Assembly (NCBI GenBank): GCA_964508365.1
Contig: CAZDTP010000049.1
Location: forward strand, 1-31,876
DNA: 31,876 bases
Origin: an uncultured archaeon
Lineage (GTDB): Archaea > Asgardarchaeota > Lokiarchaeia > Sigyniarchaeales > SOKP01
Direction of reading: 5' to 3'
In this document: in pieces, positions 1,619 through 30,432 of the stretch
Position numbering within the stretch: position 1 is the first letter of the stretch
Layout of the letters: the number at the start of each line of letters is the position of its first letter
Position numbers and translations under genes: made by a program
Notes under the pieces: model-generated
Seen by the model: the letters and a program-made list of their open reading frames with translations, nothing else
Database searches by the model: none
What the model was told of the DNA's origin: nothing

Positions 1619-1630
1619 ATAGGTGAAAAA

Positions 1631-2527
1631 ATGAGTTTCTTTAAATTCCTAGAAAGGCTAAAAGCACCAGATACATCAATAATTCTTTATAGCTTGTTAA
1701 ATAGAATACCAATAATTGTATATGGTGATGATTCGGAAGAAGTTAATAATCTTATAATAGATCTATCGGACCTAATTCATTTCCGCAAAGAATTAGTATT
1801 CTATACTGATTTTATTTCGGAGACTGAATATACTAATTTAATTATGAATGAAAACATCGATTATAACTCACAACGAACACATATAAGATGCCCTACGACT
1901 GTTGCACTTAAAGCTTTAAACCAATTTGAAAGCTTTAATTCTTGGTTAATTGGAATTGAAATACCAGAGCAAAAGGAAAAAATTCAACAGTTTATTAACA
2001 GCGTTAAAAAGAAAATTGATCTTTTCTTAAGTATTAGTTTCTTTTCAAATTCAATTTCAATAGATTTTATAGGATTAAATTGGAAGCTACTCGATCTTAC
2101 TTTTGAAAGAGAGGTATTACAAAAAATATCTCAAGACACTGAAAAATCTATAACAAAAATGAAGCGGGTTCTTTTTGAGAAAGTTAAATCAGAAGATATA
2201 GATCAAGATTTACTTCGGACACTATTAGATTTTGATGTCGAAAAAGAGGAATTGAAGCGTAATATTTTTAAAAAGGAGATACAAAATTTTTATTCTGGGT
2301 CTAAGAGAGCTTTCTTTATTTTCTCTAGGTTAAATTTATTAAATAATATTGAAATTAATACCAAAATTGGGAGTAAAACGCTTATGGAAACAATAGATTA
2401 TGATTACGCGCATATAGAGAGAATAATCTCATTTATATGTAAAGAATGGGGAGAAGATTTTTCGTCTTTAATTGAGAATGGGAAAAAAGTTAATGCTCTA
2501 GATAGTATGCAATCGTTGTGGGGGTGA
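1631..2527 (+). CDS. Uncharacterised protein with a DENN-core-like alpha/beta domain and helical C-terminus
   Basis: Long ORF with SD AGGTGA at 1621-1626. IILYSLLNRIPIIVYGDDSEEVNNLIIDLSDL and SWLIGIE resemble the DENN core pattern by eye. The CDS is secure; the family call is inference. Confidence 0.55.
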   Translation: MSFFKFLERLKAPDTSIILYSLLNRIPIIVYGDDSEEVNNLIIDLSDLIHFRKELVFYTDFISETEYTNLIMNENIDYNSQRTHIRCPTTVALKALNQFESFNSWLIGIEIPEQKEKIQQFINSVKKKIDLFLSISFFSNSISIDFIGLNWKLLDLTFEREVLQKISQDTEKSITKMKRVLFEKVKSEDIDQDLLRTLLDFDVEKEELKRNIFKKEIQNFYSGSKRAFFIFSRLNLLNNIEINTKIGSKTLMETIDYDYAHIERIISFICKEWGEDFSSLIENGKKVNALDSMQSLWG

Positions 2528-2533
2528 CTAGCA

Positions 2534-3127
2534 GTGATATATGATTATGAGAATAAGATATTACAAGTAAAAATCGTTTATTATGGCCCCGCAATGTCAG
2601 GAAAAACGACCTCAATAAAACACTTATTCTCTTATTTTAATAAGGAAGACACATTAAATTCAATTGATAGCACTGTTGGTAGAACTCTGTTCTTTGATTT
2701 TGGTGTATTGCAATTTAAAGGCTCTGAATGGAGCTTAAAATTTTTAATATATTCTGCTACTGGACAAGATTTTTATGCAAGCACCAGACCAGCAACTTTG
2801 AATGGAGTAGATGCAGTGATTTTTGTTGTTGATTCAAGAGACCATTGCTTGCATCACAATATAAGATCGTGGAATGAGCTTAAAACAATGTTCAGAAATG
2901 AATTATATAACTTACCAATGGTGATTTCATTAAATAAATCTGATTTTGAATCGAAGCAAGAAATAAGAGATCATGAATTTATAAAGATAATAAATATAAA
3001 TCAATTTAAATACATTTCTGCTAATAGAACGGTTGCAACTGAAGGAAAAGGGATATTAGATGCATTTAATCGCATTATAACATTCATATTTCCAGAATTA
3101 ACATTAAAAATGAGTATAACAAATTAG
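2534..3127 (+). CDS. Small GTPase, MglA type
   Basis: VKIVYYGPAMSGKTT (G1), GRTLFFDF (G2 region), YSATGQDFYASTR (G3 equivalent of MglA TVPGQ), GVDAVIFVVDS and NKSD (G4). GTG start with SD GGGGTGA. Confidence 0.92.
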   Translation: MIYDYENKILQVKIVYYGPAMSGKTTSIKHLFSYFNKEDTLNSIDSTVGRTLFFDFGVLQFKGSEWSLKFLIYSATGQDFYASTRPATLNGVDAVIFVVDSRDHCLHHNIRSWNELKTMFRNELYNLPMVISLNKSDFESKQEIRDHEFIKIININQFKYISANRTVATEGKGILDAFNRIITFIFPELTLKMSITN

Positions 3128-3138
3128 TATTTTTATTT

Positions 3139-3315
3139 CTAAATTTTTTCATACATGTTTTTAGAAAGTCTTTTAATAAATCCTTGTTTGTGAAATTGTT
3201 TTAACAAATTTCGAACTTTTCTAACTTCCTGCGTATCTACTCCGAGTATACCTATTAACTGAAATATTGAAAACTGTTTTGGCAATTGTTCCTTGATGCT
3301 ATTATACACTCCCAT
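3139..3315 (-). CDS. Small winged-helix protein, 58 aa (below the ORF-track cutoff)
   Basis: Manual translation: MGVYNSIKEQLPKQFSIFQLIGILGVDTQEVRKVRNLLKQFHKQGFIKRLSKNMYEKI*. It has a helix-turn-helix followed by the typical wing (L..L.K.G.I.R.....Y). Confidence 0.75.
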   Translation of the reverse strand: MGVYNSIKEQLPKQFSIFQLIGILGVDTQEVRKVRNLLKQFHKQGFIKRLSKNMYEKI

Positions 3316-3693
3316 TTCTATTTACTCAAAAGGTGATATTCTATAGTATTATGTAAAATGATCAAGAATTTATATAAATTACTAAACTTAGTTAATTCGA
3401 TATTTAGATTTTATTGGTTTTTATAATCCTCAATGTAACTATAATATTTCATTCCTATTTTTTATAAGTCATGTATATTAGTTATTTTCATAGAATTTTT
3501 ATAACCGTAGGGAACTCCTAATAAATAATGATTTTTATTTTCTTTATTCTCATAATGTTCTTTAAAGAGTATTATTAAAATATTCAATAACCCTAGATCC
3601 TTCGTAGCTATCAAGTATTGCTTATCTTAAAGAGATTTAAAATATTGTAATAAATATATGATCGTCGAAATGGTTAAATAGCGATAAGAAAGT

Positions 3694-4374
3694 TTAAAAC
3701 TTTGGGATATCTCTACTGAAATTATCTCCAACTGGTGCTTTTCCATCCCCATATATCTGATATAATCCAGTTCTTCTCGCGCATTCGCTAAAACTTCTAT
3801 AGATATCCAATTTCTTCTCGTATAATGCACAAGTTTTATAAATTATAGGATTCCATATATATAACTCGTGATCTGGTTCATGCCAGAGCTTTTCTTCTTT
3901 GAGAACTTGCTTAAAATCTTCTTCTCCTATCGTTTCATTAAGATCTTGCTTATTTAGCATAGTTATAAGCGGAATTTCGTTTATTAATTTCCCCCTAGTA
4001 ATATTTTTTAGTTCTTTTAAAGATTCAATATTATCTTCAAAGAAGTGAGTTTGCGAATCAACTACGAAAATCACCCCATCAGTACCCTTGAAAATCTTTT
4101 TTCTTAATGGAGAGAATCTACTTTGCCCAGCAACAGTATAAACATGATAATATACCTTGTTCTGTTTAGTTGATTGAAAAATTCCACGATCGAAATATAA
4201 AGTAGACCCGCTCGCCATCGATATTTTAGTTAAATTTCCAGTTGGTGTAATATCTTTTTTTTGTTCTTTTGTAAGTCTGTATAACGTGTCTACTATCGTT
4301 GTTTTTCCAGAGCCTCCCATACCCCAGTAAAGAATTTTTATATAAATATTATGATCTGCAGTCCAACGAACCAT
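3694..4374 (-). CDS. Small GTPase, MglA type (second paralogue)
   Basis: IKILYWGMGGSGKTT (G1), GSTLYFDRG, YTVAGQSRF, KIFKGTDGVIFVVDSQ, NKQD (G4) and TCA (G5). Confidence 0.92.
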   Translation of the reverse strand: MVRWTADHNIYIKILYWGMGGSGKTTIVDTLYRLTKEQKKDITPTGNLTKISMASGSTLYFDRGIFQSTKQNKVYYHVYTVAGQSRFSPLRKKIFKGTDGVIFVVDSQTHFFEDNIESLKELKNITRGKLINEIPLITMLNKQDLNETIGEEDFKQVLKEEKLWHEPDHELYIWNPIIYKTCALYEKKLDIYRSFSECARRTGLYQIYGDGKAPVGDNFSRDIPKF

Positions 4375-5114: not shown

Positions 5115-6137
5115 ATGGAAATTAATACAAAAGAAAGTATAGAAGAAGAAAAATGCTCTGAATGTGGTGGTCCAGTAATGACGAATTCTTACGAAATAAC
5201 ATGTAAGGATTGTGGGTTAGTATTAGATAACATATATAAAGAATCGTCATATGTTTTCGACAACATCAATACCAAGAGTAATTTGAATAAACAGTATGTT
5301 GCTTTAGGAGAAAGAATTGATTATATTGGGGGATTAGGAACTTTTATAGACTATGAGAACTCAAAATATTTAAAAGATAAAACAGGTAAGTTATTACCCC
5401 CCGATGAGCAAAAACTATATAGAAGATTAAAAAAAAACTATTCACAATTTTTAAGAATTAAAAACCATGAAACTGAATACAGGATTTTTAATATATTAAA
5501 CAAAATCTCAATCTATTTAAACTTGAATAAGAATATCAGAAATAACGCGGCATATTACTATAAAAAAATAGTTAAGAATGAAGAGAGCGTTATCAATAAT
5601 ATCTCCTTGATTGCTTTTTGCATATTCTATTCAGTTCGTAAGGAGTATCATAATGCTCCAATTACTATTAACGAAATTTCAAATGCCTTTCAAAGTTTTG
5701 GGCACCGAGTTAATCCAAGATTGATTTTAAGAGATGGAATAAGGTATAAAAATCATTTAAATAATGATACGATACCTCATAGCAGTGAGGATTACTTAAA
5801 TAGATTGATCAATAACATTATAAATCATAAAGATTTAGAGATGAGGTTAGCAAAAAAAGGTAGTGTTTGGTCCAAAGAAGATTATAAGTGTAAACTGACT
5901 AGTAAATGCAGATTGATTTTAACAAGTTTAAATAAATGGGAGCGTGGTGGACGTAACCCTTTTATTTTAACTGGCGCTACTATTTATCTAGCAGATAAAT
6001 TGCTATCGAAGGAATTCAATCAAAAAACCGTCTTAACTCAAAAATTAATTTCATTAGCAACGAACATAGCTGAATATTCTATTAGAGACCATTATGTTAA
6101 TTTACTTAAACCAATTTTCATACAAAAGGAATGCTGA
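5115..6137 (+). CDS. tfb: Transcription initiation factor IIB (TFB), divergent paralogue
   Basis: N-terminal Zn ribbon CSECGG...CKDCGLV and two cyclin-like repeats (RNNAAYYYKK...IAFCIFYSVR; GGRNPFILTGATIYLA...TQKLIS...AEYSIRDHY). SD AGGTGA. Confidence 0.88.
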   Translation: MEINTKESIEEEKCSECGGPVMTNSYEITCKDCGLVLDNIYKESSYVFDNINTKSNLNKQYVALGERIDYIGGLGTFIDYENSKYLKDKTGKLLPPDEQKLYRRLKKNYSQFLRIKNHETEYRIFNILNKISIYLNLNKNIRNNAAYYYKKIVKNEESVINNISLIAFCIFYSVRKEYHNAPITINEISNAFQSFGHRVNPRLILRDGIRYKNHLNNDTIPHSSEDYLNRLINNIINHKDLEMRLAKKGSVWSKEDYKCKLTSKCRLILTSLNKWERGGRNPFILTGATIYLADKLLSKEFNQKTVLTQKLISLATNIAEYSIRDHYVNLLKPIFIQKEC

Positions 6138-7139: not shown

Positions 7140-9011
7140 GTGAAAAAAAAAGATAAAGCAATTCTTTTCCTATATTTTTTATTAGGAATAATGCTTATTC
7201 CCAAATCGGCATTAGGATTTTCATGCAGTAATACTTTGCTAGTAACCGATAAAAACACATATAATAATAATGAGAATATTTATATTAATGGATACTGGGA
7301 GTTATATTACGACTCAGGGTTCGAAATTTCCTATGTTCAGATTCAGATTACTAATATTTTTGATAATATCCTTTGGAATTCTTCCAATTATTACACAATC
7401 GGAATATCTCAGAAAAATTGGACGATTAATATTCAATTCTTAAACTTAACACTTACAAATAATTCCTGTAGAATTTACATAAAAATGTTTAATTACTACG
7501 AAAATTTCAATTCTCACGATGTTGTAGCGACATACAAAGAAATTATAACAATTAATATCACTAAACGAGATGTTGATTGTGAATTGACCAATTTTAAAAG
7601 CGAATTAATATATGGAGAGTCTAATTTGTTTAATGCAAGATTCTACAGTGGAAATACGAGTTATTGCTTAGTAAATGAAACACTGCTGTGCTTAATACGA
7701 AATAATAACGAAATTATCTATCAAACGAATTTTACAACAGATAACGATGGAATGATTTCATTCAACATTTCAACGGTTAATCATTTGGATTTAGGAAGAA
7801 ATGATGTATCATTTAATATTAGAAACAATTCACGCTATTTGGATACTACATTCTCTTACGAAGTATATGTAAATAAAATACCTGTTTATGGGGAAATTAC
7901 TAATTTTGTAAATAGTACAGAAGAAGGTAGCCTGATAAAAATTCAGCTATTTTACTATTATTTTAACTCAAGTATAAAACCGCTTGAAAACGAGAATTTA
8001 AAAATTACTGTTTATGGTAATGCAACTCTCGAATACGAGGAGATGTTAAAGACTAATCAAACGGGATTTGTTAATATCAATATTTTACCGTCTATTTTCA
8101 ACTTTGAAGAAGGCGACAAAATGTTTTATGTAGATGTGGATGTTATATTTAACGGAACTAGTTATTTAGAGAATAGAACGATCTCTCTATCCTTTCAAAT
8201 TCATAAATTTCTTAAAGGATATGTTGATTGTGAATTGACCAATTTTAAAAGCGAATTAATATATGGAGAGTCTAATTTGTTTAATGCAAGATTCTACAGT
8301 GGAAATACGAGTTATTGCTTAGTAAATGAAACACTGCTGTGCTTAATACGAAATAATAACGAAATTATCTATCAAACGAATTTTACAACAGATAACGATG
8401 GAATGATTTCATTCAACATTTCAACGGTTAATCATTTGGATTTAGGAAGAAATGATGTATCATTTAATATTAGAAACAATTCACGCTATTTGGATACTAC
8501 ATTCTCTTACGAAGTATATGTAAATAAAATACCTGTTTATGGGGAAATTACTAATTTTGTAAATAGTACAGAAGAAGGTAGCCTGATAAAAATTCAGCTA
8601 TTTTACTATTATTTTAACTCAAGTATAAAACCGCTTGAAAACGAGAATTTAAAAATTACTGTTTATGGTAATGCAACTCTCGAATACGAGGAGATGTTAA
8701 AGACTAATCAAACGGGATTTGTTAATATCAATATTTTACCGTCTATTTTCAACTTTGAAGAAGGCGACAAAATGTTTTATGTAGATGTGGATGTTATATT
8801 TAACGGAACTAGTTATTTAGAGAACAGAACGATCTCACTATCATTTCAAATTCATAATTTTCAATATCACAGAAATTATAGCTCGTTCTATTTTGTCAAT
8901 ATTTGTCTCCTTTCAATTTTAACTTCTCTTTTTACATCAATTGGATTAAAAGTATATGAGTACAAAAAGGCGGCTTTTAAATTAATTAGAGATATCACAT
9001 TCAAATTTTAA
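7140..9011 (+). CDS. Membrane-anchored cell-surface glycoprotein with Ig-like repeats
   Basis: Signal peptide (MKKKDKAILFLYFLLGIMLIPKSALG), beta-rich repeats with TDNDG/TNQTG Big-domain-like motifs, and 11 N-x-S/T sequons per 217-aa unit. A C-terminal TM helix is followed by a short basic tail. Confidence 0.85.
   Translation: MKKKDKAILFLYFLLGIMLIPKSALGFSCSNTLLVTDKNTYNNNENIYINGYWELYYDSGFEISYVQIQITNIFDNILWNSSNYYTIGISQKNWTINIQFLNLTLTNNSCRIYIKMFNYYENFNSHDVVATYKEIITINITKRDVDCELTNFKSELIYGESNLFNARFYSGNTSYCLVNETLLCLIRNNNEIIYQTNFTTDNDGMISFNISTVNHLDLGRNDVSFNIRNNSRYLDTTFSYEVYVNKIPVYGEITNFVNSTEEGSLIKIQLFYYYFNSSIKPLENENLKITVYGNATLEYEEMLKTNQTGFVNINILPSIFNFEEGDKMFYVDVDVIFNGTSYLENRTISLSFQIHKFLKGYVDCELTNFKSELIYGESNLFNARFYSGNTSYCLVNETLLCLIRNNNEIIYQTNFTTDNDGMISFNISTVNHLDLGRNDVSFNIRNNSRYLDTTFSYEVYVNKIPVYGEITNFVNSTEEGSLIKIQLFYYYFNSSIKPLENENLKITVYGNATLEYEEMLKTNQTGFVNINILPSIFNFEEGDKMFYVDVDVIFNGTSYLENRTISLSFQIHNFQYHRNYSSFYFVNICLLSILTSLFTSIGLKVYEYKKAAFKLIRDITFKF
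7570..8857 (+). repeat. In-frame tandem duplication, period 651 nt (7570-8206 vs 8221-8857)
   Basis: 7570-8173 read as identical to 8221-8824 (604 nt). The next 33 nt contain three synonymous differences (8174/8825, 8186/8837, 8192/8843). Confidence 0.97.
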
Positions 9012-9279: not shown

Positions 9280-10485
9280 ATGACAATAGATTACTTTGAA
9301 GATTTATTAAAAAAACCATCGTTGTTCAAAAACGAAAGGAAACTCGATAACGATTATGTTCCTAAAATGCTACCGCATCGAAATAAAGAGTTATCATTGC
9401 TATCTCAACTATTTTTAGTGCTCGTAACGAATCCGAATTCAATTTCACGAAAAATATTAATAATTGGGAAAACAGGAATTGGAAAAACTGCTACAATTAA
9501 ACTTTTTGGACAAATGTTAGTAAACGCAGCTCAAAAAAGATCAGGAGATATTAAGTATGTTCATATTAACTGTCGGAAAGAAAGGACTAGCTATAAAGTC
9601 TTAATCAAAATAGTGCGTACACTCAATAATAATTTTCCAAAAAGAGGATACTCTCCACAAGATTTACTTGAAATTATTATTGATCTGATAAGAGATCAAA
9701 ATCTCCATTTATTAATTGTTTTAGATGAATTAAGCTATTTAATTGGCAAGGGGGAGGATCTTATTTATTCGCTTACGAGAATTAACGATGACTCGTTCAA
9801 AACCCGCCAACACATTTCTATTATTGGAATTGCAAGAGATATATCTTGTTTAAGTGGTTTGGATACTAGTACTATGAGCACTTTGCAGAGGAATATAATA
9901 TATTTCAACAATTATAATAAAGAACAGCTCTTTGATATATTGAAGTATAGAACAGAACTTAGTTTAAAAGAGAATATTATTTCGGATAACTTAATCCAAA
10001 CTATTTCGGATATAGTATATCAGAGTGGAGATATAAGGTATGGATTAAATTTACTATGGAAATCAACAAAAATCGCAGAAAATCAGAATTTAAAATATAT
10101 CACTATAGAATCAATCCGTCTTGCAAATCAAGACATAGTTCCTTTTTCTACACTAGATATATTAAAATATATGTCTACTCAAAAAATCATTTTTTTATTA
10201 GCTATTATAAATTCTTTAGATAAGTGTAGAGGAATTCATTCATCTATTCGTGAAATCACTGAATCATATTTAATATTATGTGAAAGCTTAGGAATTCAAC
10301 CACGGTCTCATTCACAACTATGGAATTACCTCCAGGAGTTTAAAAGAGAATATTTAATTAGTATGGAAATCGTCAGTGAGTCTATTAAAGGCCGAAAAGC
10401 TCAAATAACTGTTCAAAATATTCCCATTTCAAAGTATAAAGAATTTTTATTAGAAGTAATGGAAACTAAAGGGATAAAGATTTGA
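9280..10485 (+). CDS. cdc6: Cdc6/Orc1 replication initiator (AAA+ with C-terminal winged helix)
   Basis: DYVPKMLPHRNKEL, Walker A GKTGIGKT, YVHINC, Walker B LIVLDE, sensor GDIRYGLNLL and a C-terminal wHTH (ISMEIVSESIKGRKAQI). Confidence 0.95.
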   Translation: MTIDYFEDLLKKPSLFKNERKLDNDYVPKMLPHRNKELSLLSQLFLVLVTNPNSISRKILIIGKTGIGKTATIKLFGQMLVNAAQKRSGDIKYVHINCRKERTSYKVLIKIVRTLNNNFPKRGYSPQDLLEIIIDLIRDQNLHLLIVLDELSYLIGKGEDLIYSLTRINDDSFKTRQHISIIGIARDISCLSGLDTSTMSTLQRNIIYFNNYNKEQLFDILKYRTELSLKENIISDNLIQTISDIVYQSGDIRYGLNLLWKSTKIAENQNLKYITIESIRLANQDIVPFSTLDILKYMSTQKIIFLLAIINSLDKCRGIHSSIREITESYLILCESLGIQPRSHSQLWNYLQEFKREYLISMEIVSESIKGRKAQITVQNIPISKYKEFLLEVMETKGIKI

Positions 10486-10775
10486 TAGTAAAAGAAGCAG
10501 AAGAGAACTTTAAAATCGAAAATTTATTAGGATCACGGGCAAGAATTAAAATTTTAAAAGTATTAGCTTTAAATCAAGAATTATCAATATCTCAGATTAT
10601 AAAGATTACTAAACTTAATCATGCAAGCGTTAAAAGTCACTTAGATTATTTAAAATCCTATAAATTAATTCAGGAGAAAATATTTGGGCGAATAAAGATA
10701 TATAGATACAAATTTGAAAACATTAGGGCTAATAGTTTAAAAAAATTTATACAAATATGGGAAGGCGATTTATAA
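10482..10775 (+). CDS. ArsR-like winged-helix transcriptional regulator
   Basis: LLGSRARIKILKVL...LSISQIIKIT.LNHASVKSHLDYL....LI....FGRIKIY. The TTG start overlaps the cdc6 stop (TTGA). Confidence 0.85.
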   Translation: MIVKEAEENFKIENLLGSRARIKILKVLALNQELSISQIIKITKLNHASVKSHLDYLKSYKLIQEKIFGRIKIYRYKFENIRANSLKKFIQIWEGDL

Positions 10776-10778
10776 GGA

Positions 10779-11444
10779 ATGATTCCAAACATAGGTGGGA
10801 TTTTTTTTTATTATTCAAATATAGTTCTATTATACTGTATGTATAGAGATATTTGTTTTAGGAAAATACCAAACAAAAGCCTTACATATTTCTTTATTGT
10901 TGGTTTTATCTTAACTCTTGTTGAAGCTCAAAATTATTATACTAACCTGATGATTTTTGTGATCTGCAAATCTATAATCGTTTTATTAGCATATATTTTT
11001 TCTTTTTCGCTGTTCTGTTTAAAATTAATGGGGGGAAGTGATGGTAAGTTAATTATCTTTTTGTTCTTGACTTTTCCTATTCTTGGTTTTAATTTCCATT
11101 TGTTTTTTTCTTTTTTTATATATCTTTTGATCTTATTTTTATTACTATTATCATTTAATTACCTTTTCAATCGTTTTTTAACAAAATCTCATACTTTCAA
11201 TATGTTGCATGCATTAAATGAAAAAATTTCATATCCTCGCAAAACATTTTTGAAATTATTTTATAGGTTTTTGGATTTTTCGCAAATAAATAAATATTCA
11301 GATACTAAGCTCCAGATGAAATCACTTATTTTGTTTTATAATGAAGAAAGAGAAAAATTTCAATTTCTTGCACAAATTAGACCTCCAATTGCTGTATTAA
11401 TATTCATTTCCTATGATTTTTTGATGATTAATTATCTTTTCTAA
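10779..11444 (+). CDS. Prepilin/class III signal peptidase, family A24 (PibD/FlaK-like)
   Basis: Both catalytic Asp motifs are present (YRDICFRKIPN and LMGGSDGK), with multiple TM segments and a C-terminal IRPPIAVLIFISY resembling the archaeal A24B tail. Confidence 0.88.
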   Translation: MIPNIGGIFFYYSNIVLLYCMYRDICFRKIPNKSLTYFFIVGFILTLVEAQNYYTNLMIFVICKSIIVLLAYIFSFSLFCLKLMGGSDGKLIIFLFLTFPILGFNFHLFFSFFIYLLILFLLLLSFNYLFNRFLTKSHTFNMLHALNEKISYPRKTFLKLFYRFLDFSQINKYSDTKLQMKSLILFYNEEREKFQFLAQIRPPIAVLIFISYDFLMINYLF

Positions 11445-12980: not shown

Positions 12981-14498
12981 TTAAAAATAATTGATAACAT
13001 TAAAAAAACTTGATAAAAATGCTACTACATATATAATACAGGAAGTAGTAATTAGAACTCTCTTTCTTTCGTAGGATATGATTTCCAAGAAATAGTAAGA
13101 GGATATATAGACACAAAACCATAGTGCAAGAAAAATAACAACGAAATCATAACTAAATATTAATTCTAATAATGAAGATAAATAAATATTACTAGAGAAG
13201 GATATGTTGTTAATCATAATGTTGAACAGTGGAAATAAACCCCCAATTCCACCAATTACGATAGGGAGCAGGAATAAAAAAAATAATACCCTAAAACGTT
13301 CTCCTCTAATTATAATTTCTAACTGGCTCTCTAGTTTTTGATGTTTTGAAATTTCACTTAATAACTCATTGATCTTTTTATGAGATATGTATGCGTTTTT
13401 ACTAACTAACTTTCCAATTACGTCTAGTATTATTTTAAACCGTATTGAATTTGTCTCAATTTCTAAATTCTCCAGCATTTCCTCAAAAGAACAGGAGAAA
13501 TTTAAAAGATTAGTGATTTGTGACTTTATTGGGGCGTCTATTAATACGAATTGACTTTTATTTTGAAAATATGAATTTATGAATGCAATTTCAGGTGAAG
13601 AGTTTTTTTGTAAGTGTAATGTAAAACCTTTCAAGAAGGAGATGAATTCGTGAAATTTAGCTTTTTCCTCCTTCGAATAATTATTTAACAATCCGAGCAA
13701 GAATGAATCATTTCGTAGAAATTTCTTGTTTAATGTTTTAATTGATATAAAATAAATTGGTAGAATTATAACTAATAAAAGAAAATTAATTTTTTGGAAC
13801 AAAATTAAAAAACAGATTCCCAAAGGGAAAAATAATCCAATAAAAAAGAAGACACTTAATTTTGACTCAATTTCTCTTAGATATTGCCGAAATTTTTTTT
13901 CTAATGAATTTTCGGTAAGGGTTTCATTATAAGTAAAATTAGATATTAACAATTCTTTTAAATAGGAATTAAAATCTATTGAAGGAGTGATAACATTCGT
14001 GAGTAACTTCTCGGGATTTTGACCTAATTGAATCTTGTTTAATATTTTCCGGAATTCTTTCTTAATTGGAAGGTCATAGTCCGAAATTAGTCTAATAAAA
14101 TTAATAGTTAAATCAGCACTGTTTCCAACGGATTTTTGTATAAGTGAAAAATAAATTCTAATAACATAAACGAAGGCATTCAATTGATTCTCCTTCTTTA
14201 CGATCTCTTTGTAAAACTTTTTATTGAAACTGTAAGAAAAAAATAAAGAGAATATTAGGGAAAAAGAAGATATTTGTAAAAGATTGAATATTGAGAGAAA
14301 ACTGGAAGTAGTGAATAATGTAATGAACGAAATTAAAAATATTATAAAGCTAGCTTTATTAATATCATTCTCATGGACATTGTATTCTTTTTCATACATT
14401 AATTTGTATCTAGTATCTAATTTTCTAAATCTGAATCGGGGGATATGATAAGGATGAATTTTTTGGCATAAAATTATCAGAATATTAGTAACATCCAT
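12981..14498 (-). CDS. Type IV pilus / T2SS F-family membrane platform protein (TadC/FlaJ-like)
   Basis: Two T2SSF-like cytoplasmic units (EFRKILNKIQLGQNPEKLL; NSSPEIAF...CSFEEMLENL) alternate with TM pairs. It lies downstream of the secretion ATPase and pilin. Confidence 0.85.
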   Translation of the reverse strand: MDVTNILIILCQKIHPYHIPRFRFRKLDTRYKLMYEKEYNVHENDINKASFIIFLISFITLFTTSSFLSIFNLLQISSFSLIFSLFFSYSFNKKFYKEIVKKENQLNAFVYVIRIYFSLIQKSVGNSADLTINFIRLISDYDLPIKKEFRKILNKIQLGQNPEKLLTNVITPSIDFNSYLKELLISNFTYNETLTENSLEKKFRQYLREIESKLSVFFFIGLFFPLGICFLILFQKINFLLLVIILPIYFISIKTLNKKFLRNDSFLLGLLNNYSKEEKAKFHEFISFLKGFTLHLQKNSSPEIAFINSYFQNKSQFVLIDAPIKSQITNLLNFSCSFEEMLENLEIETNSIRFKIILDVIGKLVSKNAYISHKKINELLSEISKHQKLESQLEIIIRGERFRVLFFLFLLPIVIGGIGGLFPLFNIMINNISFSSNIYLSSLLELIFSYDFVVIFLALWFCVYISSYYFLEIISYERKRVLITTSCIIYVVAFLSSFFNVINYF

Positions 14499-14518: not shown

Positions 14519-14932
14519 TTAAATGAATTGAACATTAATATAATTATAATTACATGAAATATTTAAGATGTATCGCGAAGCAAAGAGGTTAATATATATA
14601 CGGCTAATGAAAGGTTTCACATATTCATAGATTTTACATTGAATTTCGTCTTCTATTAAAAAGTTATATTTAACATAGTCTTCAGTTAATGTAATATTTA
14701 AATTTCTTGGGTACTCGATTTCATTTAAAAAATTTACATTAGGATTCTTAATGACAAAAAGAATTGCGGTATCTAATTCATTAAAAAAGTTATTGTAATT
14801 CTCTACATCATTTTTAATCGTGCCATTAAATTCAGAAATATTAATTATAAAAGGATTAATTAGTGAGACGAAAGTAATAAGAATAAATATTCCAAAACCT
14901 GTCAATAATGCTTTTTCTAACAGATTTGTCAT
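14519..14932 (-). CDS. Putative archaeal type IV pilin-like protein (class III signal peptide)
   Basis: MTNLLEKA/LLTGFGIFILITFVSLINPFI is a [KR][GA] motif followed by a hydrophobic stretch and a beta-rich C-terminus. It sits between the ATPase and platform genes, with SD AGGA. Confidence 0.7.
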   Translation of the reverse strand: MTNLLEKALLTGFGIFILITFVSLINPFIINISEFNGTIKNDVENYNNFFNELDTAILFVIKNPNVNFLNEIEYPRNLNITLTEDYVKYNFLIEDEIQCKIYEYVKPFISRIYINLFASRYILNISCNYNYINVQFI

Positions 14933-14948
14933 GTATCCTATTAAAAAT

Positions 14949-17135
14949 TTATGAATTTAAACTACATGAGTTTTTCCAATTTTCCCAAAACACACAAAGA
15001 GCCTCAACATCTGTTAACGAATAAAACGACAGTTGATCAAATAATTCGATTAACTTATAAATATCTACTTTATTAATTTGGTGAAGCGTTTTAAAGACAT
15101 CCTGATAAAGCTCAAACAATGTTTGGAATTTATCTTGAGAGAGATTCTCGTATTTTCGAATTTGTTCAACTAAATTTGACAAGTACAAAGATTCAAAAGC
15201 ACTCCAATTTTTTAAATGAGGTTCGAACTTGAAAAGAGTGTTATAACTTTTATTAGCTTCAACTATATTGTTTTTCATCTCTACTATCGAGGCGATAATT
15301 CTTCTTTGTTGATTCTTCTTCATTAAAATTAATAATCCTAAATCGCTTAAACATGAAATGTGAATTTTAAAGTGATGTATAATTCTATTCAGAAACGATT
15401 CAATATTGTTAGAATGAATGGTTTGAAAACCTTTTAAACCCGCTGCTAAACAGTGAAATAGTGCTTCAGCTTCCTCTTTAGTTAAAATTTCGCCTAAATA
15501 AATAATATCAGGAGTACGATGGAGCAAATTTTTAATTTGATTTTGCTTAGATGTTTGATGCTTTAATTGTTCTTCAAGAGAATCCACTTGATATTTTAAT
15601 TGATGCTTTTGATACTGTGATTGATTTAACGATTCAATTATATTTTCTACATATATTTTTCGAAATTCCTTAGGTGTTAAGAGATCTAATGCATTAATTA
15701 AAGTTGTTTTTCCGGTGTCTGTTTCGCCAGTAACCGTTATGTTGACCCTCCTTAAAATCAGAAAATATAAAAAAGCAGCTATCGTGGGATTAAGAGTGCC
15801 ATTCTTCAGTAAATCTTGAATAGTATATATATTTTTATTTAATTTTCTTATATCTAAAGCGAAATTGTATAACTGAACTGGTCCTACATCGATAGCAAAC
15901 CTACAATAGAAATATTTGTTTTTAATAACAACTTTAATGCTTGGATTTGAAAAATCAAGTCTTCTTCCACTGTATAACCTTAGAAATGTTTTTAATCTCT
16001 CAATATCCTTTATATCTAATTTTATATCAGTTCTACAGCGCCCAAATTTCTGGTGGTTAATATAAACCTTTTCCTTTGGAGAATCTAAAAAAATTTCTTC
16101 AATTTGATCGTCAATCAATAAAGGAAAAAGCTTTTCTATTTTTAATTTATGCAAAGCAGAAACAAATGATATGCTTTCTATTTCGTTTTCAGAAAGTTTG
16201 TATTTAGAAGCTAAATAGCGTTTAGCATTCATCTGATATAAACTTATTAATTCCTCTATTGGAATAATCTTTTCAGAGTCAAGAAGCTTTAAGTTGTTCT
16301 TTGCGTCGTTTACAATTTTTTTAAAGAAATCTTCTTCTCCAGAAGATTGAAATGAAAATTTAACAACATAATGTTTCTCATATTCGTTAATTACATCAAA
16401 AATTAGTATTTGAAAAATTTTATTCTTTCCAATACTATAAGTTTCATTCAAATCGCTTCCTGAGGGAATAAAAGAATTTTTTGTGAATTTATTGTTTATT
16501 GAAGCGATGGGTGTCTCAAATATGATAGAATTATAAAAATCTATAATACAATCGGCACTTTTATTTTTTATTGAAAACTTTTTGTATTTTTGAATGATAT
16601 CCAATTTGTTTAATATATCTAATAAATTGTCTAAAAGGGTTAAAACTTTTTTAATACATTTTTGACAATCAAAATTGATGGCTTCTGTTCCTTTAAGTTC
16701 ATTTATTTTATCAAGAATATAATTGAAAATCGAAATTGGTTCATAAATGGGATTAGTATCAGTAAAAAAAGGAAAATTGTATAAAGTTCCTATCCTACAA
16801 TTAAATTCTTGATATTTGCATTTTATTTTTCCAATATTATCTATTTTCTTCCAAATCTTTTTAATAGAACTAATTTTATTAAAAAAGCTTAAAATGTATG
16901 AAAGCTGGCTAGAGTCAATCACATTTTCGCGTCTTTTTATCGAAATAGTTTTATCTATACTATTTTTATTTAAATATAGATTCTTGAGTACGCAGTAAAT
17001 ACATTCGCTTGTGAAATTTCTGCCTTCTTCTAAATTTGAACAAATAGAACAATTTATTATTAACATCTTCTCTTCTTTATCATCCAACGAATTTTTTACT
17101 TGGAAATGGATTAACTTATCTATTTTCGATGTCAT
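14949..17135 (-). CDS. Type II/IV secretion ATPase (VirB11/CpaF/FlaI family) with a Cys-rich N-terminal extension
   Basis: IEEIFLDSP...YINH...GRCRT, DFSNP, FALDIRK, Walker A GETDTGKTT, HRTPDIIYLGE and His box TIHS. Confidence 0.92.
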   Translation of the reverse strand: MTSKIDKLIHFQVKNSLDDKEEKMLIINCSICSNLEEGRNFTSECIYCVLKNLYLNKNSIDKTISIKRRENVIDSSQLSYILSFFNKISSIKKIWKKIDNIGKIKCKYQEFNCRIGTLYNFPFFTDTNPIYEPISIFNYILDKINELKGTEAINFDCQKCIKKVLTLLDNLLDILNKLDIIQKYKKFSIKNKSADCIIDFYNSIIFETPIASINNKFTKNSFIPSGSDLNETYSIGKNKIFQILIFDVINEYEKHYVVKFSFQSSGEEDFFKKIVNDAKNNLKLLDSEKIIPIEELISLYQMNAKRYLASKYKLSENEIESISFVSALHKLKIEKLFPLLIDDQIEEIFLDSPKEKVYINHQKFGRCRTDIKLDIKDIERLKTFLRLYSGRRLDFSNPSIKVVIKNKYFYCRFAIDVGPVQLYNFALDIRKLNKNIYTIQDLLKNGTLNPTIAAFLYFLILRRVNITVTGETDTGKTTLINALDLLTPKEFRKIYVENIIESLNQSQYQKHQLKYQVDSLEEQLKHQTSKQNQIKNLLHRTPDIIYLGEILTKEEAEALFHCLAAGLKGFQTIHSNNIESFLNRIIHHFKIHISCLSDLGLLILMKKNQQRRIIASIVEMKNNIVEANKSYNTLFKFEPHLKNWSAFESLYLSNLVEQIRKYENLSQDKFQTLFELYQDVFKTLHQINKVDIYKLIELFDQLSFYSLTDVEALCVFWENWKNSCSLNS

Positions 17136-19091: not shown

Positions 19092-19355
19092 TTGGAAAGA
19101 TATTATAAGATTATTCAAAGGCCGTTGATAACTGAAAAAACCTTTGATATTATTGAGAGGGAAAATAAGTTAGTTTTTATCGTTAATAAAAAAGCTAATA
19201 AAAGCCAGATAAAGCAAGCAATAGAGAAAATACATAATGTTAAAGTGATCAAGGTGAATACTATCATAACACCTAAGGGGGAAAAAAAAGCTTTAATTAA
19301 ACTCCACCCAAATTATTCTGCTCAGGACATCGCTATCGATTTAGGCATTTTTTAA
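19092..19355 (+). CDS. rpl23: 50S ribosomal protein L23
   Basis: PLITEK...ENKLVFIV...ANK.QIK.AIE...VKV.KVNT...GEKKA. TTG start 1 nt after the rpl4 stop. Confidence 0.97.
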
Positions 19356-20477
19356 TAAATTTTCTTTTTTCAACTCCAAGAAATCAAGCATAACAAAATC
19401 TTTAAAGCTAAGAATTTTTAAATTATCCAACAAACCTATTTCATTAGATTCAATTAATTTCCTATATTCTTTTTGATTTAGAATTAATATGAATATGAAA
19501 TATCGCGAGAAAAAATTTTTTAGTAGTTTTTTAATGTACTTTAAATTGTTATCCTCTAAAATTAAAAATAATATTCTCTCTTCAATAAAGAAAAGATTTG
19601 GCTTTAAACGATGATAATTAAATTTGTTCAATTGCAGGATTTTAACAAATTGAGTGTTAAACTTAGAAATATCCTGAAAATTAAATTGACTTAATGAAAA
19701 AAAGATGTCAGCATCATTGTTTATTACATAAAAATTATCTGAAACATTTACCCTCCATAAAATACGATAGATGTTTGAAATATTCAGATTTGATTTCTTG
19801 AATAGCTCACAATCATAAAGTTGGTTTATTTCTTTATCTATGTCAATGACATTTGAGTTTACATCATGTTTTATGTCTAAAAAGTACGCATTTGTTACAA
19901 TTTTCTGATGATTATCGGTTCTAATATTGAAAATCATATACCCTTTTTGGTTAAAGTTTTTAAGAGCTTTCAGTAAACTATGTAAGGAAATCATTTGATT
20001 TTTTAGGTTCTCAAAATTCATTTGATGAGTCTGAATAAATTTTAGACTTTCACCATACTTTAAAACCAAAAAATTCGGTTCTTTCATTGAATTTGCTCCT
20101 CCATCTATATTATTTGACAGCACATGTAAAAAATGCCTTTTTAATTTGCGATTTTTTAAAAACGAGACAGAGCTATCAATATTATTTATCTTTTCTTTAA
20201 TTAAATTAAAGAATTTATCAATATTGCTTCTATTTTCTCCTACAAAGGATATAATAATTAGCGTTTTTCTTTTTTGAGGGATATTAAGCTGAATAGAATA
20301 ATAGATTAGATATTTATTTAATATAAATTCATTAAGTGGTTTAATTATTCTAAGAAAATTGTCGGATTCAAGAATTGAAAAAGCTATAAGCTTATTATTT
20401 TTGTTAATGCTTTTGTAATAAATTAAATGATTTTCCAATAAAAATGAAAACACCTTAAATTTACCCTTTTTAACCAT
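19341..20477 (-). CDS. Hypothetical protein, 378 aa
   Basis: Long ORF whose 3' end overlaps the rpl23 3' end by 15 nt. No family was recognised. Confidence 0.75.
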
Positions 20478-26993: not shown

Positions 26994-27221
26994 TTAGTTT
27001 TTAAGTAACGCACCAAAATCTTCCCAAAAATTATTTGCTAAATCTAAAGGCCAGTCTAGTAAAGATGTCATAACTCCAACAATTATAAAGAAAATAAACA
27101 AAGCTAATCCAATTAATAGAGCATATTCTATTAGATTGCCACCATACTCGTCTGAGAAGAAATCTTTTATTCTACTTAGAATGATTTTCTTTTTTTTTTT
27201 AACGAATTCCTTCTTCTTCAT
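26994..27221 (-). CDS. Flp/Fap-type pilin precursor
   Basis: FFSDEYG/GNLIEYALLIGLALFIFFIIVGV: Gly at -1, Glu+5 and Tyr+6 (Flp motif), a hydrophobic helix and a 48-aa mature peptide. ATG at 27221 is preferred over TTG at 27245. Confidence 0.85.
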   Translation of the reverse strand: MKKKEFVKKKKKIILSRIKDFFSDEYGGNLIEYALLIGLALFIFFIIVGVMTSLLDWPLDLANNFWEDFGALLKN

Positions 27222-27290
27222 ACTCAAAAAAAACCTAATTTGCATTACATTGCAAAAATAGTCTTTTAAACTAAACTAAAAAGTTGAATT

Positions 27291-27707
27291 TTATGAATCC
27301 CTAATAATTTTAAGTGTATGATTGAGTTCTTCTTCAGTTGCTTGTTCTCTAGGGATTGATAATCTGAATTTTCCATCTGCTCTACTCCGGGGAATTATAT
27401 GAATATGAAAATGATTAATTACTTGCCCAGCAGCCTTATAATTATTCTGCAATATGTTATATCCATCAATATTCAAATTTTTAAAAATCAAATTAGATAC
27501 AATTTTGACAGTCGCCATAACCTCATATAAATCATCTATCGGGATGGTTTCTAGATTAGTATAATGCTTTTTAGGAATAACAATCGTATGACCTTGAGAT
27601 ATTGGTAAAATATCTAGAAATGCGATCGTATTATTATTTTCATATAGAATTTTTGAAGGTATTTTTTTTTCAATTATTTTGCAAAATATACAATCATCGT
27701 TATTCAA
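27291..27707 (-). CDS. HIT family nucleotide hydrolase (HINT-like)
   Basis: CIFCKII, AFLDILP...GHTIVIPKKH and AGQVINHFHIHIIPR (intact histidine triad). Confidence 0.95.
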   Translation of the reverse strand: MNNDDCIFCKIIEKKIPSKILYENNNTIAFLDILPISQGHTIVIPKKHYTNLETIPIDDLYEVMATVKIVSNLIFKNLNIDGYNILQNNYKAAGQVINHFHIHIIPRSRADGKFRLSIPREQATEEELNHTLKIIRDS

Positions 27708-27839
27708 TAATAACTCACCAAACCTACCATAATTATATTTTTAATGATTAAAAATTATAAACTTTAAAAAACCTTCACAGCCTTTTAATTTTTTTGGTTT
27801 AATTAAATCTCAAAGATTACCAAGGGGGTTGTGATTTGA

Positions 27840-28655
27840 ATGTTTTTTGATGAGATTGAATCAATTATTGAAAATAAATTATCTCCTAAAATTTATAGAA
27901 TCGATTCTGAATATTATGGATTATATTACGGACAAATCAACACTAAGAAACATATTAAAAAAATATTGTTTACAGTTGATTTAAGCTTGGAATCAATTCA
28001 TTATGCAGTAAAGAATAAAATAAACCTCATAATTTCTCTCAACGGCTTTAATAATAACCCTATCACTAATTTTAACCAATTATTAATAAATAAGATAAAT
28101 TTACTATCTAGATATCCCTTGTTGATTTTTATCTTAAACTCTACTTTTATAGCTGCTGAGGGAGGTGTTTCGGATACTATTATGGAATCACTCTATCTAA
28201 AATTGGATCAAACACTTAATGTTGAGAACAATAGGGGCGATTCTGTTCCTATAGGTAGAATATGCATCCCAAATTCTTATACAGAGAACAACAAAATTAT
28301 GACTTTAGATAATTTACTTAAAAGGATTAAATCCAATCTAGAGGTAGAAGACGCTTTATTCGTAGGTGAATTAAATTCAGAAGTTAAGAAAATTTGTATT
28401 GTAGGAGAAGATAAATTAAATATAAATTACATTAGAAAGGCATTAAAAAATGAATGTGATTGTTATATCTCTGGCTATTTTAATCATCAAATTGCTAGTT
28501 ACGCTAAAGAATCCCGTTTAAACCTAATAGGAATATCTCTTTATAACTGTAACACCATTGCTTTGAAAAAAATGCATAACATTCTGAGTTTAGAGTTTCC
28601 TCATGATGATTTTTATTTCTTTGAATCAAGAGACCCAATAAATATTTTTAATTAA
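27840..28655 (+). CDS. NIF3/YbgI-like protein lacking the metal ligands
   Basis: The scaffold is recognisable (YGLYYG, IKKILFTVD, AAEGGV, PIGRI, VKKICIVG, DCYISG), but the HH, H-x3-D and GH-x3-E motifs are replaced. Confidence 0.8.
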   Translation: MFFDEIESIIENKLSPKIYRIDSEYYGLYYGQINTKKHIKKILFTVDLSLESIHYAVKNKINLIISLNGFNNNPITNFNQLLINKINLLSRYPLLIFILNSTFIAAEGGVSDTIMESLYLKLDQTLNVENNRGDSVPIGRICIPNSYTENNKIMTLDNLLKRIKSNLEVEDALFVGELNSEVKKICIVGEDKLNINYIRKALKNECDCYISGYFNHQIASYAKESRLNLIGISLYNCNTIALKKMHNILSLEFPHDDFYFFESRDPINIFN

Positions 28656-28804
28656 ATTGAAATTCTAATGAATCGAGAATTTATGAAGTTGTAGAATTTT
28701 ATTATTAAGAAAAGAGATTATTTAACTTGATAATTTAATTAAATTTAAATTGTTTGAATTTTACCTTTTTTTCAGTTTAATAATAAAAACATAGTTGAAG
28801 AATA

Positions 28805-29386
28805 ATGGTAATACTTGAATATAATGGAAGAAGCCCTAATCTTAGTGATAATTGTTATGTATCTCCACTAGCAACTTTAATTGGTGATGTTACTGTAAAT
28901 GATAATGCAATTATTTGGCCTGGCTCTATAATTCGAGCTGAAAACTCAAAAATCAATATCGGTGAGTATACAACAGTTTTTAACGGTGTGATGATGTTTA
29001 CGAGATCTCAAAAAAGTTCAATTAATATTGGCCGTTATTGCATAATTGAATCGGGAGTAACTATTTTAGGTTGCTTCATGGAAGATTACGTACAAATTAT
29101 GGAAGGGACTCTTATTTATGAAGAGAGTTCAATTGGGGAAGGTTCGATCATTATAAAAAATAGCCAGGTTCCTCCTGGTTTAACAATTCCCGCGAGATCA
29201 GTATTGCGGGGAATTCCGGTTGAGCCAATAAGGGAACAATCGAGAAATGAGGTATTAAAACAAAAAGATCGAGCAGAACATTATTCTCAACTCTTCATGA
29301 AAATTAACGAACAATTACCTAATGCACAAAGTTATCTCTTAACACTTCCTGACTTTATTAAACTACTTTTTCAAAGAGAAAATTAA
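28805..29386 (+). CDS. Gamma-carbonic-anhydrase-like left-handed beta-helix protein lacking the Zn ligands
   Basis: ATLIGDVTV...IWPGSIIRAE..INIG, hexapeptide repeats, GIPVEPIR and a C-terminal helix AEHYSQL. None of the three catalytic His residues is present. Confidence 0.85.
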   Translation: MVILEYNGRSPNLSDNCYVSPLATLIGDVTVNDNAIIWPGSIIRAENSKINIGEYTTVFNGVMMFTRSQKSSINIGRYCIIESGVTILGCFMEDYVQIMEGTLIYEESSIGEGSIIIKNSQVPPGLTIPARSVLRGIPVEPIREQSRNEVLKQKDRAEHYSQLFMKINEQLPNAQSYLLTLPDFIKLLFQREN

Positions 29387-29392
29387 AAAAAA

Positions 29393-30280
29393 TTATATTT
29401 CAATATTTAATTTTTCAATCAATTCTTTGTATCTAGAACGTAAAGTAACTTCAGTTACTCCTACTACATTTGCTACATCTTTTTGAGAAATCCTCTTGTC
29501 TTTCTTCTTGCTCACTAAATACAATGCTCCTGCGCATAATCCCTTAGGATCTTTACCACTTGTTGAATATTTTGAGATAAAAGATTGCAGAATTTTGATC
29601 GTTAATTGTTCAGTTTCAGCATCTAATCCTAGTTCTGCCACAAATCTGGGAATGAGAGAAACAGGATTAGTGGAGGGTGCTTTTAAATTTAATTCTCTAA
29701 TTATTGTTCTATAACATCTCCGAACGTTTTTTGCATTAACTGATGTTTGATCTAATATTTCTTGAAGTGTTCTGGGGATTTTTCGTTCTCTACAAGCAAA
29801 ATACAAGCAAGCTGCGACCATACCGTTGATTGATCTACCGCGGAGTAATTTTTTCTTAAACGCTTCAATATATAATTTAATAGCTGCTTTTTTTATATGG
29901 TTGGGCAAATTTAGATTACTCCCGATTCTTTTTAGTTCAGTAGTGGCAATTAACATGTTTCTCTTATCCCACGTCATACGAGAATTCCATTTTGCAGCTC
30001 TTTTTAAATCAGGACTTCTTATATTGTTTTTGTCAATAATAGTACTTAAGCCCATATCAGGTAATAGAATTGAAATAGGAGATCCCGTCCGCTCTCTTCT
30101 TTCTTTCTCTTGCTTTGTGAAAGCTCGTTTACCACTATGGGATATGTCTAATAATCTTTCACTCACAACTAAACCACATTGACGACATACAATTTCTCCT
30201 TTTTCGTGAATTGAAATTGTCTTACCTTCACATTCTGGACATGAATTTGATATACTACTAATTTCTGATTTTATTTCCAC
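29393..30280 (-). CDS. tfb: Transcription initiation factor IIB (TFB), canonical
   Basis: CPECEG...CRQCGLV, RERTGSP, LRGRSI..MVAACLYFACR, GKDPKGLCAGALY and SQKDVA..VGVTEVTLRSRYKEL. GTG at 30280 with SD GAGG is preferred over 30313. Confidence 0.96.
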   Translation of the reverse strand: MEIKSEISSISNSCPECEGKTISIHEKGEIVCRQCGLVVSERLLDISHSGKRAFTKQEKERRERTGSPISILLPDMGLSTIIDKNNIRSPDLKRAAKWNSRMTWDKRNMLIATTELKRIGSNLNLPNHIKKAAIKLYIEAFKKKLLRGRSINGMVAACLYFACRERKIPRTLQEILDQTSVNAKNVRRCYRTIIRELNLKAPSTNPVSLIPRFVAELGLDAETEQLTIKILQSFISKYSTSGKDPKGLCAGALYLVSKKKDKRISQKDVANVVGVTEVTLRSRYKELIEKLNIEI

Positions 30281-30432
30281 TTTAAAAACCTCTTTTTTAA
30301 ACTTAAAATTCACAAACTAAATTATTTTCCACATTAACTAACTGAAAATCGTATTAAATCCAATAAATCTTTATTCGTGTGACTGAAAATTGATTTATTA
30401 CTTGAATGCAAAATAACTATATGTAACTTGGA

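Follow-up and report, generated by a model that had tools for sequence, protein, structure and literature searches.

The window analysed here, a stretch of 31,876 nucleotides (contig CAZDTP010000049.1 of assembly GCA_964508365.1) from an uncultured lokiarchaeial archaeon of the order Sigyniarchaeales, carries near one end a small gene that is most likely a headless Flp-like prepilin, that is, a precursor of a pilin without a globular domain, handled as a subunit by the archaeal type IV machine encoded in the same window. This mini-pilin, encoded in most Asgard archaea next to or not far from a pilus motor of archaeal kind, probably builds a thin surface filament as a subunit that has so far gone unnoticed, and was probably not imported from bacteria. 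Judged by sequence comparison, the pilin appears to belong to a vertically inherited Asgard family that shares common ancestry with bacterial Flp, while the machine appears to be archaeal.

The gene was recognized within an open reading frame of 83 amino acids (aa) on the minus strand (26994-27245), which encodes a basic leader followed by FFSDEYGGNLIEYALLIGL and then by a hydrophobic stretch. A first-pass annotation, made from the letters of the DNA, had pointed to this frame, its basic leader and a 48-aa mature peptide with Glu at +5 and Tyr at +6, all of which can be read directly from the sequence. The start that is kept across orthologues is the second methionine of the frame, M9 (MKKKEF...), and since several orthologues carry a stop codon just upstream of the residue aligned to M9, we take this as the true start of the prepilin; the gene thus encodes 75 aa, with the coordinates given in Table 1. 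Its GC content (25-26%) is the same as that of its surroundings, and the window is even in composition (23-34%). The window consists of archaeal housekeeping DNA, with Orc1/Cdc6, L3/L4, class I LysRS, ABCE1 and TFB genes identified through Pfam, and the neighbours of the prepilin gene are ABCE1, a 124-aa protein without assignment and a HIT hydrolase. The placement in an Asgard genome, also part of the first-pass annotation, was borne out in that every one of the 80 relatives listed from named genomes comes from a metagenome-assembled genome (MAG) of the Promethearchaeota (Loki-type Asgard), in a related-locus scan that was queried with sequences of the genus and samples close relatives only. 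The source genome is 100% complete by marker genes. Contigs of P0039 are shorter than 1 kb, and their gene context is uninformative.

With a single sequence as query, prepilin orthologues were detected in 22 of the 24 genomes in the genus, and none of the 10 genomes in a sister family lacked one. A profile constructed from the 22 orthologues (A1) matched 286 of 331 Asgard genomes, all at least 80% complete, and covered 29 of 31 families and 71 of 78 genera (E <= 1e-4); the first-pass annotation had considered that the frame might be a contaminant or a product of chance without Asgard orthologues. Ratios of non-synonymous to synonymous substitution rates (dN/dS) against the genus orthologues lie between 0.03 and 0.13, and strong purifying selection extends over the mature peptide from end to end, the amphipathic tail at its C-terminus included. 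The prepilin gene is thus real and constrained. Similarity within the family drops with taxonomic distance, which, taken together with its presence in 29 of the 31 Asgard families, fits vertical descent.

The predicted cut follows Gly27 (DEYG/GNLIEYALLIGLALF, where the slash marks the cut) and would release a mature peptide of 48 aa with Gly at +1, Glu at +5 and Tyr at +6. All 22 order-wide orthologues have Gly or Ala five positions ahead of the invariant Glu, as do 104 (84%) of 124 short proteins in the wider family; of the same 124, 50% carry Lys or Arg at -2. A [KR][GA] pair with Glu at +5 is the classical archaeal class III site. Members from other Asgard classes carry an archaeal site of the form [KR]G/SPLVEE, and the Loki subfamily and family f29 have D-E-x-G before the cut, like bacterial Flp. 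Thus, with Lys or Arg at -2 in half of the short members and D-E-x-G in the Loki subfamily and f29, the 'bacterial-style' site appears as a trait of some Asgard lineages in an otherwise archaeal-looking family. Glu32, Phe44 and Trp57 are invariant order-wide. The AF2 model of the prepilin, calculated with an alignment, displays a helix at residues 2-23, a break at D24 and a continuous helix at residues 25-74 (pLDDT 81), and the mature pilin is predicted to be a single 48-aa helix without a globular domain, a headless architecture that has been solved for the Caulobacter Tad pilin (PMC10710030). Foldseek comparison of the model with the PDB gave no match, as expected for a single helix, and a profile search of PDB sequences with the prepilin returned nothing relevant.

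Flp_Fap (PF04964) was the sole pilin family in Pfam that responded to the prepilin, and it was the top Pfam family for 10 of the 22 orthologues (best E 0.019, none above the cut-off). When a hidden Markov model of the family was compared with 1.84 billion representative proteins, just 142 clusters were retrieved, of three kinds: Loki-type sequences, many short [KR]G/SPLVEEGLLIG proteins, and ~20 bacterial-looking Flp, the last of which were retrieved at library-wide E-values of 1e-4 to 5e-10. Among the bacterial-looking sequences included in alignment A3, 14 of 15 match Flp_Fap at E <= 0.001, and the three that were checked singly pass the gathering cut-off. Alignment of the family with those Flp by hhalign yielded a probability of 98.8% (E 6e-17) over 58 columns from leader to tail, a score that is optimistic because the Flp set was picked by the family's own profile; controls in which the Flp alignment was reversed or column-shuffled gave at most 1.8%. 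In this alignment D-E-x-G falls on D-E-x-G, cut on cut and E-Y on E-Y, with G27 of the prepilin on the -1 Gly of bona fide Flp. Homology of the prepilin to bacterial Flp is therefore supported by the sequence comparisons, and the Flp-like prepilin of the first-pass annotation finds its counterpart in Pfam-verified Flp with the same processing register. In NCBIfam, the only match of the prepilin was to TrbL at 14 bits, which is spurious.

It could be argued that the gene product is a small protein that spans the membrane once and has no kinship with type IV filaments, its resemblance to Flp having arisen by convergence or from composition. Scores that stay under every curated family cut-off, the empty PDB sequence and Foldseek searches, and the position of the gene between ABCE1, the 124-aa protein and the HIT hydrolase all point in this direction. 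Nevertheless, reversing or shuffling the alignment abolishes the hhalign match, and leader, cut site, Glu+5 and tail are matched in a single register; moreover, across Asgard classes the gene keeps company with the ATPase, platform and peptidase in gene order and in occurrence, and where the ATPase is duplicated, the second copy has a pilin of its own, as detailed below. We consider an unrelated membrane protein to be highly improbable.

The distances that separate the prepilin gene from the ATPase, platform and peptidase genes in the window are of 9.9-16.2 kb, in agreement with the 10-16 kb noted at first reading. Pilin and ATPase share a contig in every genome where both were found, with a gap of ~10 kb throughout the genus and of 0.65-2.7 kb both in family f2 and in a duplicated module of genome G008. 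Family f2 has the order Orc1-HTH-(peptidase)-ATPase-platform, and its pilin is at most ~3 kb away from the ATPase, on either side of Orc1-HTH; in this family (L112, G037:C1:164562-168857), pilin, Orc1, HTH, peptidase, ATPase and platform follow each other in ~6 kb. The ATPase lies directly upstream of the pilin in f29 and is divergently adjacent to it in f21, and the A24 peptidase is found at most ~0.3 kb from the pilin in G030 and adjoins the ATPase in G037. An ATPase without a pilin was seen in no genome searched, while both are missing in ~11, and within the genus the A24 peptidase is present only where ATPase and pilin occur, on the same contig, the genomes without these two also being without the peptidase; such counts overstate independence, since the genomes are kin.

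The duplicated ATPase (45% identity) of G008, a congener, has its own copy of the pilin. This second module (L113, G008:C15:25700-34000) includes a small GTPase, the ATPase, a homologue of the soluble protein encoded at 19341-20477 in the window, a 132-aa protein, the pilin paralogue and a 909-aa helicase/caspase-like protein; a platform gene was not found in this paralogous locus. In another lineage (L118, 2483-6219; JGI 3300038469), an operon next to FtsZ encodes an ATPase (659 aa), proteins of 277 aa and 223 aa and, as its last gene, a related pilin with the site DEHG/SPLVEEGLLLG, which carries the IMG name 'Flp pilus assembly pilin Flp'. The 277-aa and 223-aa products may be a split platform. 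Synteny and co-occurrence thus agree with the earlier suggestion that the pilin belongs with the ATPase, platform and peptidase of the window.

The peptidase is composed of the peptidase domain alone, with PF01478 as its sole match and no methyltransferase domain, and no other A24 gene was found in the genome; we presume that this peptidase processes the prepilin. Its catalytic Asp motifs, YRD..R.IPN and GG[SGA]DGK, are kept in 12 orthologues, with the first Asp replaced by Glu in one of them (L125). The genome has one good T2SSE ATPase, which in comparisons with the PDB scores highest against archaeal GspE (2OAP, 91 bits), followed by FlaI (65), CpaF (45) and PilT (28), and in NCBIfam scores higher against FlaI (88.6) than against the TadA family (74.3). 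Residues C29/C32/C45/C48 (CxxC...CxxC) are kept in at least 87% of 15 aligned Asgard ATPases, that of the window included, and C106/C113/C157/C160 in 67-80% of them; the retention of these paired cysteines in residues 1-160 across Asgard classes suggests zinc-ribbon-like modules.

The platform protein lies outside the reach of sequence profiles, with no match in Pfam or NCBIfam, and PF00482 matches nothing genome-wide. Its ESM Atlas neighbours are Asgard proteins, 66-68% with T2SSF. In its AF2 model (pLDDT 82), residues 273-400 match cytoplasmic domains, namely the N-domain of PilC (2WHN; Z 10.2, rmsd 2.6, 103/103), and also PilC 3JC8 (Z 9.7), EpsF (Z 8.6) and TcpE (Z 8.5); helical bundles have high background Z-scores, but the top ranks nonetheless belong to one family and cover the whole domain. 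These matches were obtained with the full VIA search, and the best row in Foldseek, also a PilC chain, had a non-significant E of 0.42. The model thus suggests a PilC/EpsF-like fold.

Regarding other potential substrates of this machine, profile searches of the genome recognized no archaellin, no Pilin_N (PF07790, above noise) and no Class_IIIsignal protein. A loose motif scan of all open reading frames of the genome gave 46 matches which, with the exception of the prepilin, are ordinary membrane proteins or junk, so that no second prepilin was found. Neither a rival substrate nor a second convincing prepilin was therefore recognized in the genome by profile search and motif scan.

When compared to bacterial Flp/Fap pilins (Tad, type IVc; PF04964), the Asgard prepilin has a similar long basic leader ending in D-E-x-G, the same G/xxxxEY register, and a mature peptide of ~45-50 aa predicted as a continuous helix with no globular domain, and in both cases the peptidase has no methyltransferase domain. 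It carries, however, Gly and not Ala/Val at +1, Asn-Leu and not Thr-Ala at +2/+3, and, unlike Flp, has a conserved Trp and an acidic amphipathic tail. The module differs from Tad in its archaeal host, in an ATPase of archaeal type by scores, and in its single platform gene, the genus and f2 carrying one gene of 505 aa as opposed to the two of Tad (TadB and TadC). TadE (PF07811) gave nothing better than E 1.25 genome-wide, and TadZ/CpaE, the RcpA secretin and TadD were absent from the Pfam matches of the window's reading frames, for which no genome-wide search was made, TadF not having been specifically searched. Outer-membrane parts are not expected in an archaeon. Thus, of the Asgard Tad/Flp pilus initially proposed, the likeness to Flp holds in the hhalign comparison, whereas the Tad part finds no support, given the single platform, the lack of a TadE match and an ATPase that scores nearer to archaeal GspE and FlaI than to CpaF/TadA.

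The same evidence bears on whether the pilin, or a whole Tad system, was gained from bacteria by back-transfer, as the first-pass annotation had also envisaged. The leader and N-terminus (DExG/xxxIEYxLLIG) are nearer to bacterial Flp than to any of the archaeal pilins in Pfam, Flp_Fap alone among pilin families responds and PF04021 gives nothing, hhalign reaches the probability given above, and automatic pipelines label a few members 'Flp family type IVb pilin' or 'Flp pilus assembly pilin Flp'. On the other hand, the family is phylum-wide (29 of 31 families), its similarity declines with taxonomic distance, and in other classes of the phylum the site is of the archaeal [KR][GA] type, [KR]G/SPLVEE; in addition, the ATPase ranks archaeal GspE and FlaI before CpaF, there is a single platform instead of TadB plus TadC and no TadE match, and the GC content equals that of the surroundings. 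The lone 'bacterial' record, from a Minisyncoccales MAG, has the synteny of the window. We thus give a bacterial origin very little credence.

That record is a 4.8-kb contig (L143; JBMCQP010000032.1, GCA_048625535.1) filed under 'Minisyncoccales bacterium', which holds TFB-Hexapep-NIF3-HIT-pilin in the order seen in the window at 26994-30313. By its gene content it is almost certainly a mis-binned Lokiarchaeial contig, and its pilin is the one that NCBI names 'Flp family type IVb pilin'.

The route by which the headless prepilin would become a filament can be outlined as follows. The 27-aa basic leader would keep the precursor in the membrane until the sole A24 aspartic peptidase cuts after Gly27 (DEYG/GNLIEY); Glu+5 of the mature helix would pair with, and neutralize, the N-terminus of a neighbouring subunit; the platform would extract the 48-residue helix from the membrane; and, powered by the ATPase, the helices would stack into a thin filament that is helical throughout, like the Tad pilus of Caulobacter. 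A leaderless 137-aa protein, encoded between ATPase and platform, may prime or anchor the fibre. Cleavage, polymerization, surface exposure and a role in adhesion or in cell-cell contact are what we infer from this arrangement.

A number of observations weigh against this reading. The PF04964 search recommended in the first-pass annotation leaves the prepilin below the gathering cut-off, with 13.5 versus 32.2 bits (E 0.064, profile positions 1-26 only), and short hydrophobic helices tend toward convergent similarity; the optimism of the hhalign score and the kinship behind the co-occurrence counts, both mentioned above, belong here as well. Furthermore, position -2 is occupied by Tyr here and not by the Lys or Arg favoured by characterized archaeal peptidases, and the gene is located 10-16 kb from the machine, amid housekeeping genes. 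Lastly, the closest described machine, known as 4D, is seen as possibly a repurposed, non-pilus remnant linked to transcription (PMC4858521, PMC13705601).

In the published descriptions of subclade 4D, the ATPase has an additional domain with conserved cysteines at its N-terminus, the membrane protein is unlike TadC, a TFIIB-like gene is associated and a pilin is lacking, and the system was read as possibly a repurposed or non-functional remnant (PMC4858521, PMC13705601). Its hosts are Pyrobaculum and Thermoproteus, and its ATPase does not have the C-terminal domain. A 2026 survey in PLoS Genetics found components scattered in Asgard genomes (PMC13705601). The Asgard module resembles 4D in the Cys-rich N-terminus of its ATPase, in a membrane partner that is invisible to TadC/T2SSF profiles and in components that lie scattered; a TFIIB-like gene near it in several Asgard families may correspond to that of 4D (arCOG05559). 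It differs in having a full-length ATPase and in the company of a peptidase, a conserved pilin and the leaderless pilin-like protein. The Asgard machine thus fits 4D as judged by the published description, and may belong to it.

In an alternative scenario, the peptide would be processed and used by the machine but would form no long pilus, serving instead as a short pseudopilus or piston for secretion or for DNA uptake or exchange, or as part of a 4D-type module repurposed, for example, in a transcription-linked function. Type IV machineries with pseudopili are common (T2SS, Com), which counts in favour of such a scenario, as do the divergent TFIIB-like gene and the Orc1/Cdc6-winged helix-turn-helix (wHTH) pair that travel with the machine, and a literature search that gave no report of an Asgard filament assigned to the prepilin gene. 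The machine also fits the description of 4D, for which a non-pilus function was proposed (PMC4858521, PMC13705601). The published argument for repurposing, however, rested on the missing pilin, which the Asgard family supplies; headless Flp pilins of 45 aa form long pili in Caulobacter (PMC10710030); and purifying selection acts on the whole mature peptide, including the amphipathic tail that would be the exposed surface. A processed peptide without a long pilus is, in our view, unlikely.

The filament subunit proposed here can also be compared to known archaeal pilins. Like the Asgard system, the Epd pilus of Methanococcus maripaludis (T4F system 1; arCOG06620) is archaeal and employs a small pilin without a globular domain, with Glu+5 followed by an aromatic or acidic residue, and in the literature it is regarded as kin of bacterial Tad. 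It differs in its PF04021 pilins (Q-x-S-x-E-F), two platform genes, many minor pilins, dedicated EppA peptidase and Methanobacteriati host. PF04021 gave no match in the whole genome even at E 10, and in view of this, of the single platform gene and of the single generic A24 peptidase, an Epd identity is not supported. Canonical archaeal pilins (Aap, Ups and PilA, substrates of PibD/FlaK) share with the predicted architecture of the mini-pilin a class III signal, the A24 peptidase and the hydrophobic helix, as well as [KR]G/ in other Asgard classes, but end in a globular domain, Ig-like or of another kind, and in most cases have no conserved Glu+5. The statement of the first-pass annotation that typical archaeal pilins have a globular domain was too strong, since headless Epd pilins have been published (PMC13705601). 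The pilin reported in an Asgard virome paper is a canonical Ig-domain pilin and not a member of the mini-pilin family, and 'FLP' in an Asgard-focused paper refers to a ferritin-like protein.

Table 1. Coordinates of the prepilin gene, of the machine and of nearby genes in the window.
Feature	Position	Strand	Description
Prepilin gene	26994..27221	-	75 aa from the conserved start; open reading frame and orthologue alignment
Prepilin leader codons	27141-27221	-	27 aa, 10 K/R, ending in DEYG
Mature pilin codons	26997-27140	-	48 aa, GNLIEY...
Prepilin stop codon	26994-26996	-	
A24 prepilin (class III signal) peptidase	10779..11444	+	221 aa; PF01478 34.5 bits, above cut-off
Assembly ATPase	14949..17135	-	728 aa; T2SSE/VirB11-type core and Cys-rich N-terminal domain; PF00437 68 bits
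Platform protein	12981..14498	-	505 aa, polytopic; outside the reach of sequence profiles
Leaderless pilin-like protein	14519..14932	-	137 aa, between ATPase and platform; starts with MTNLLEKALLTGFGIF
Divergent TFIIB-like protein	5115..6137	+	340 aa; Zn_Ribbon_TF E 9e-5 and TFIIB repeat (cyclin repeat) E 7e-4, both sub-threshold
Orc1/Cdc6-like ATPase and small wHTH protein	9280..10775	+	Directly upstream of the peptidase; Pfam
Soluble protein	19341-20477	-	378 aa, no family match
Beta-sandwich (PITM/macroglobulin-like) repeat protein	7140-9011	+	623 aa, just upstream of Orc1-HTH-peptidase

Several neighbouring genes may also be linked to the module. The start of the 137-aa protein (MTNLLEKALLTGFGIF) resembles that of the mature pilin (GNLIEYALLIGLALF), and 12 of 12 genus orthologues start with M-[TS]-N-[LM]-x-E-K and have stop codons just upstream; removal of the Met would thus generate a pilin-like N-terminus with Glu at +5, with no need for a peptidase. 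The protein matches the A1 profile weakly (E 1.4), and its ESM neighbours are Asgard hypotheticals, with a rank-7 cluster (40% PF04021, 0.88) that is to be taken as a lead only. From its N-terminus, we regard it as a candidate minor pilin, primer, tip or anchor.

The TFIIB-like protein is distinct from the canonical TFB (29393-30313). Its gene lies 8.8 kb from the ATPase in the window, and its homologues are located 0.7-7.5 kb from the ATPase or pilin at five loci of other Asgard families (L110, L112, L139, L141 and L142), making it a candidate for a dedicated regulator of the module. The Orc1/Cdc6-like and wHTH pair are conserved neighbours of the module, and the string that they form with the A24 peptidase (9280-11444) is kept, which raises the question of whether this Orc1 paralogue serves the module and not replication. 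A homologue of the soluble 378-aa protein stands directly beside the duplicated ATPase in G008, which suggests that this protein may be an accessory part of the module. The product of the beta-sandwich repeat gene, which has a weak homologue at the same position in f2 (L110), is a possible surface or adhesin partner.

Genes for a Roadblock-like protein, a hypothetical protein and a small Ras/Arf-like GTPase (614-4374 in the window; 15013-17516 in L110) lie within a few kb of the module in f2, and a small GTPase adjoins the duplicated ATPase in G008 (L113, 7758-8336). This GTPase/Roadblock neighbourhood recalls the way in which MglA/MglB control bacterial type IV pili.

Headless pilins of archaea, those of Epd, have already been published, and so has an archaeal ancestry of Tad pili. 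A description of the Asgard mini-pilin family, by contrast, which the first-pass annotation had thought might already exist for such pilins, was not found in the searchable literature, although the pilin is widespread in Asgard. According to a published survey, Asgard and DPANN lineages are the exceptions to a wide occurrence of type IV filaments in archaea (PMC13705601). If the 4D assignment holds, with the ATPase in arCOG05558, the Asgard mini-pilin would be the pilin that surveys missed. A more far-reaching proposal, which we advance tentatively and with considerable doubt, is that the family is the missing subunit of the 'pilin-less' 4D machines and forms a thin Flp-like filament, a common surface organelle in Asgard, that it is the closest archaeal relative of Flp, and that an Asgard/TACK 4D-like module, and not Epd, is the sister or source of bacterial Tad.

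At the level of annotation, the 75-codon gene is often left uncalled, and its 'Flp' label is occasional and due only to an accident of binning, which calls for correction. If the reading given here is true, a conserved prepilin that is under selection and travels with its machine in the majority of sampled Asgard genomes would overturn the view of a 'pilin-less remnant', and an archaeal pilin with direct sequence homology to Flp would sharpen the question of the origin of Tad. It would also provide a concrete gene for the unassigned surface filaments seen on cultured Asgard cells; these filaments may play a part in the syntrophic contacts between cells on which models of eukaryogenesis draw.

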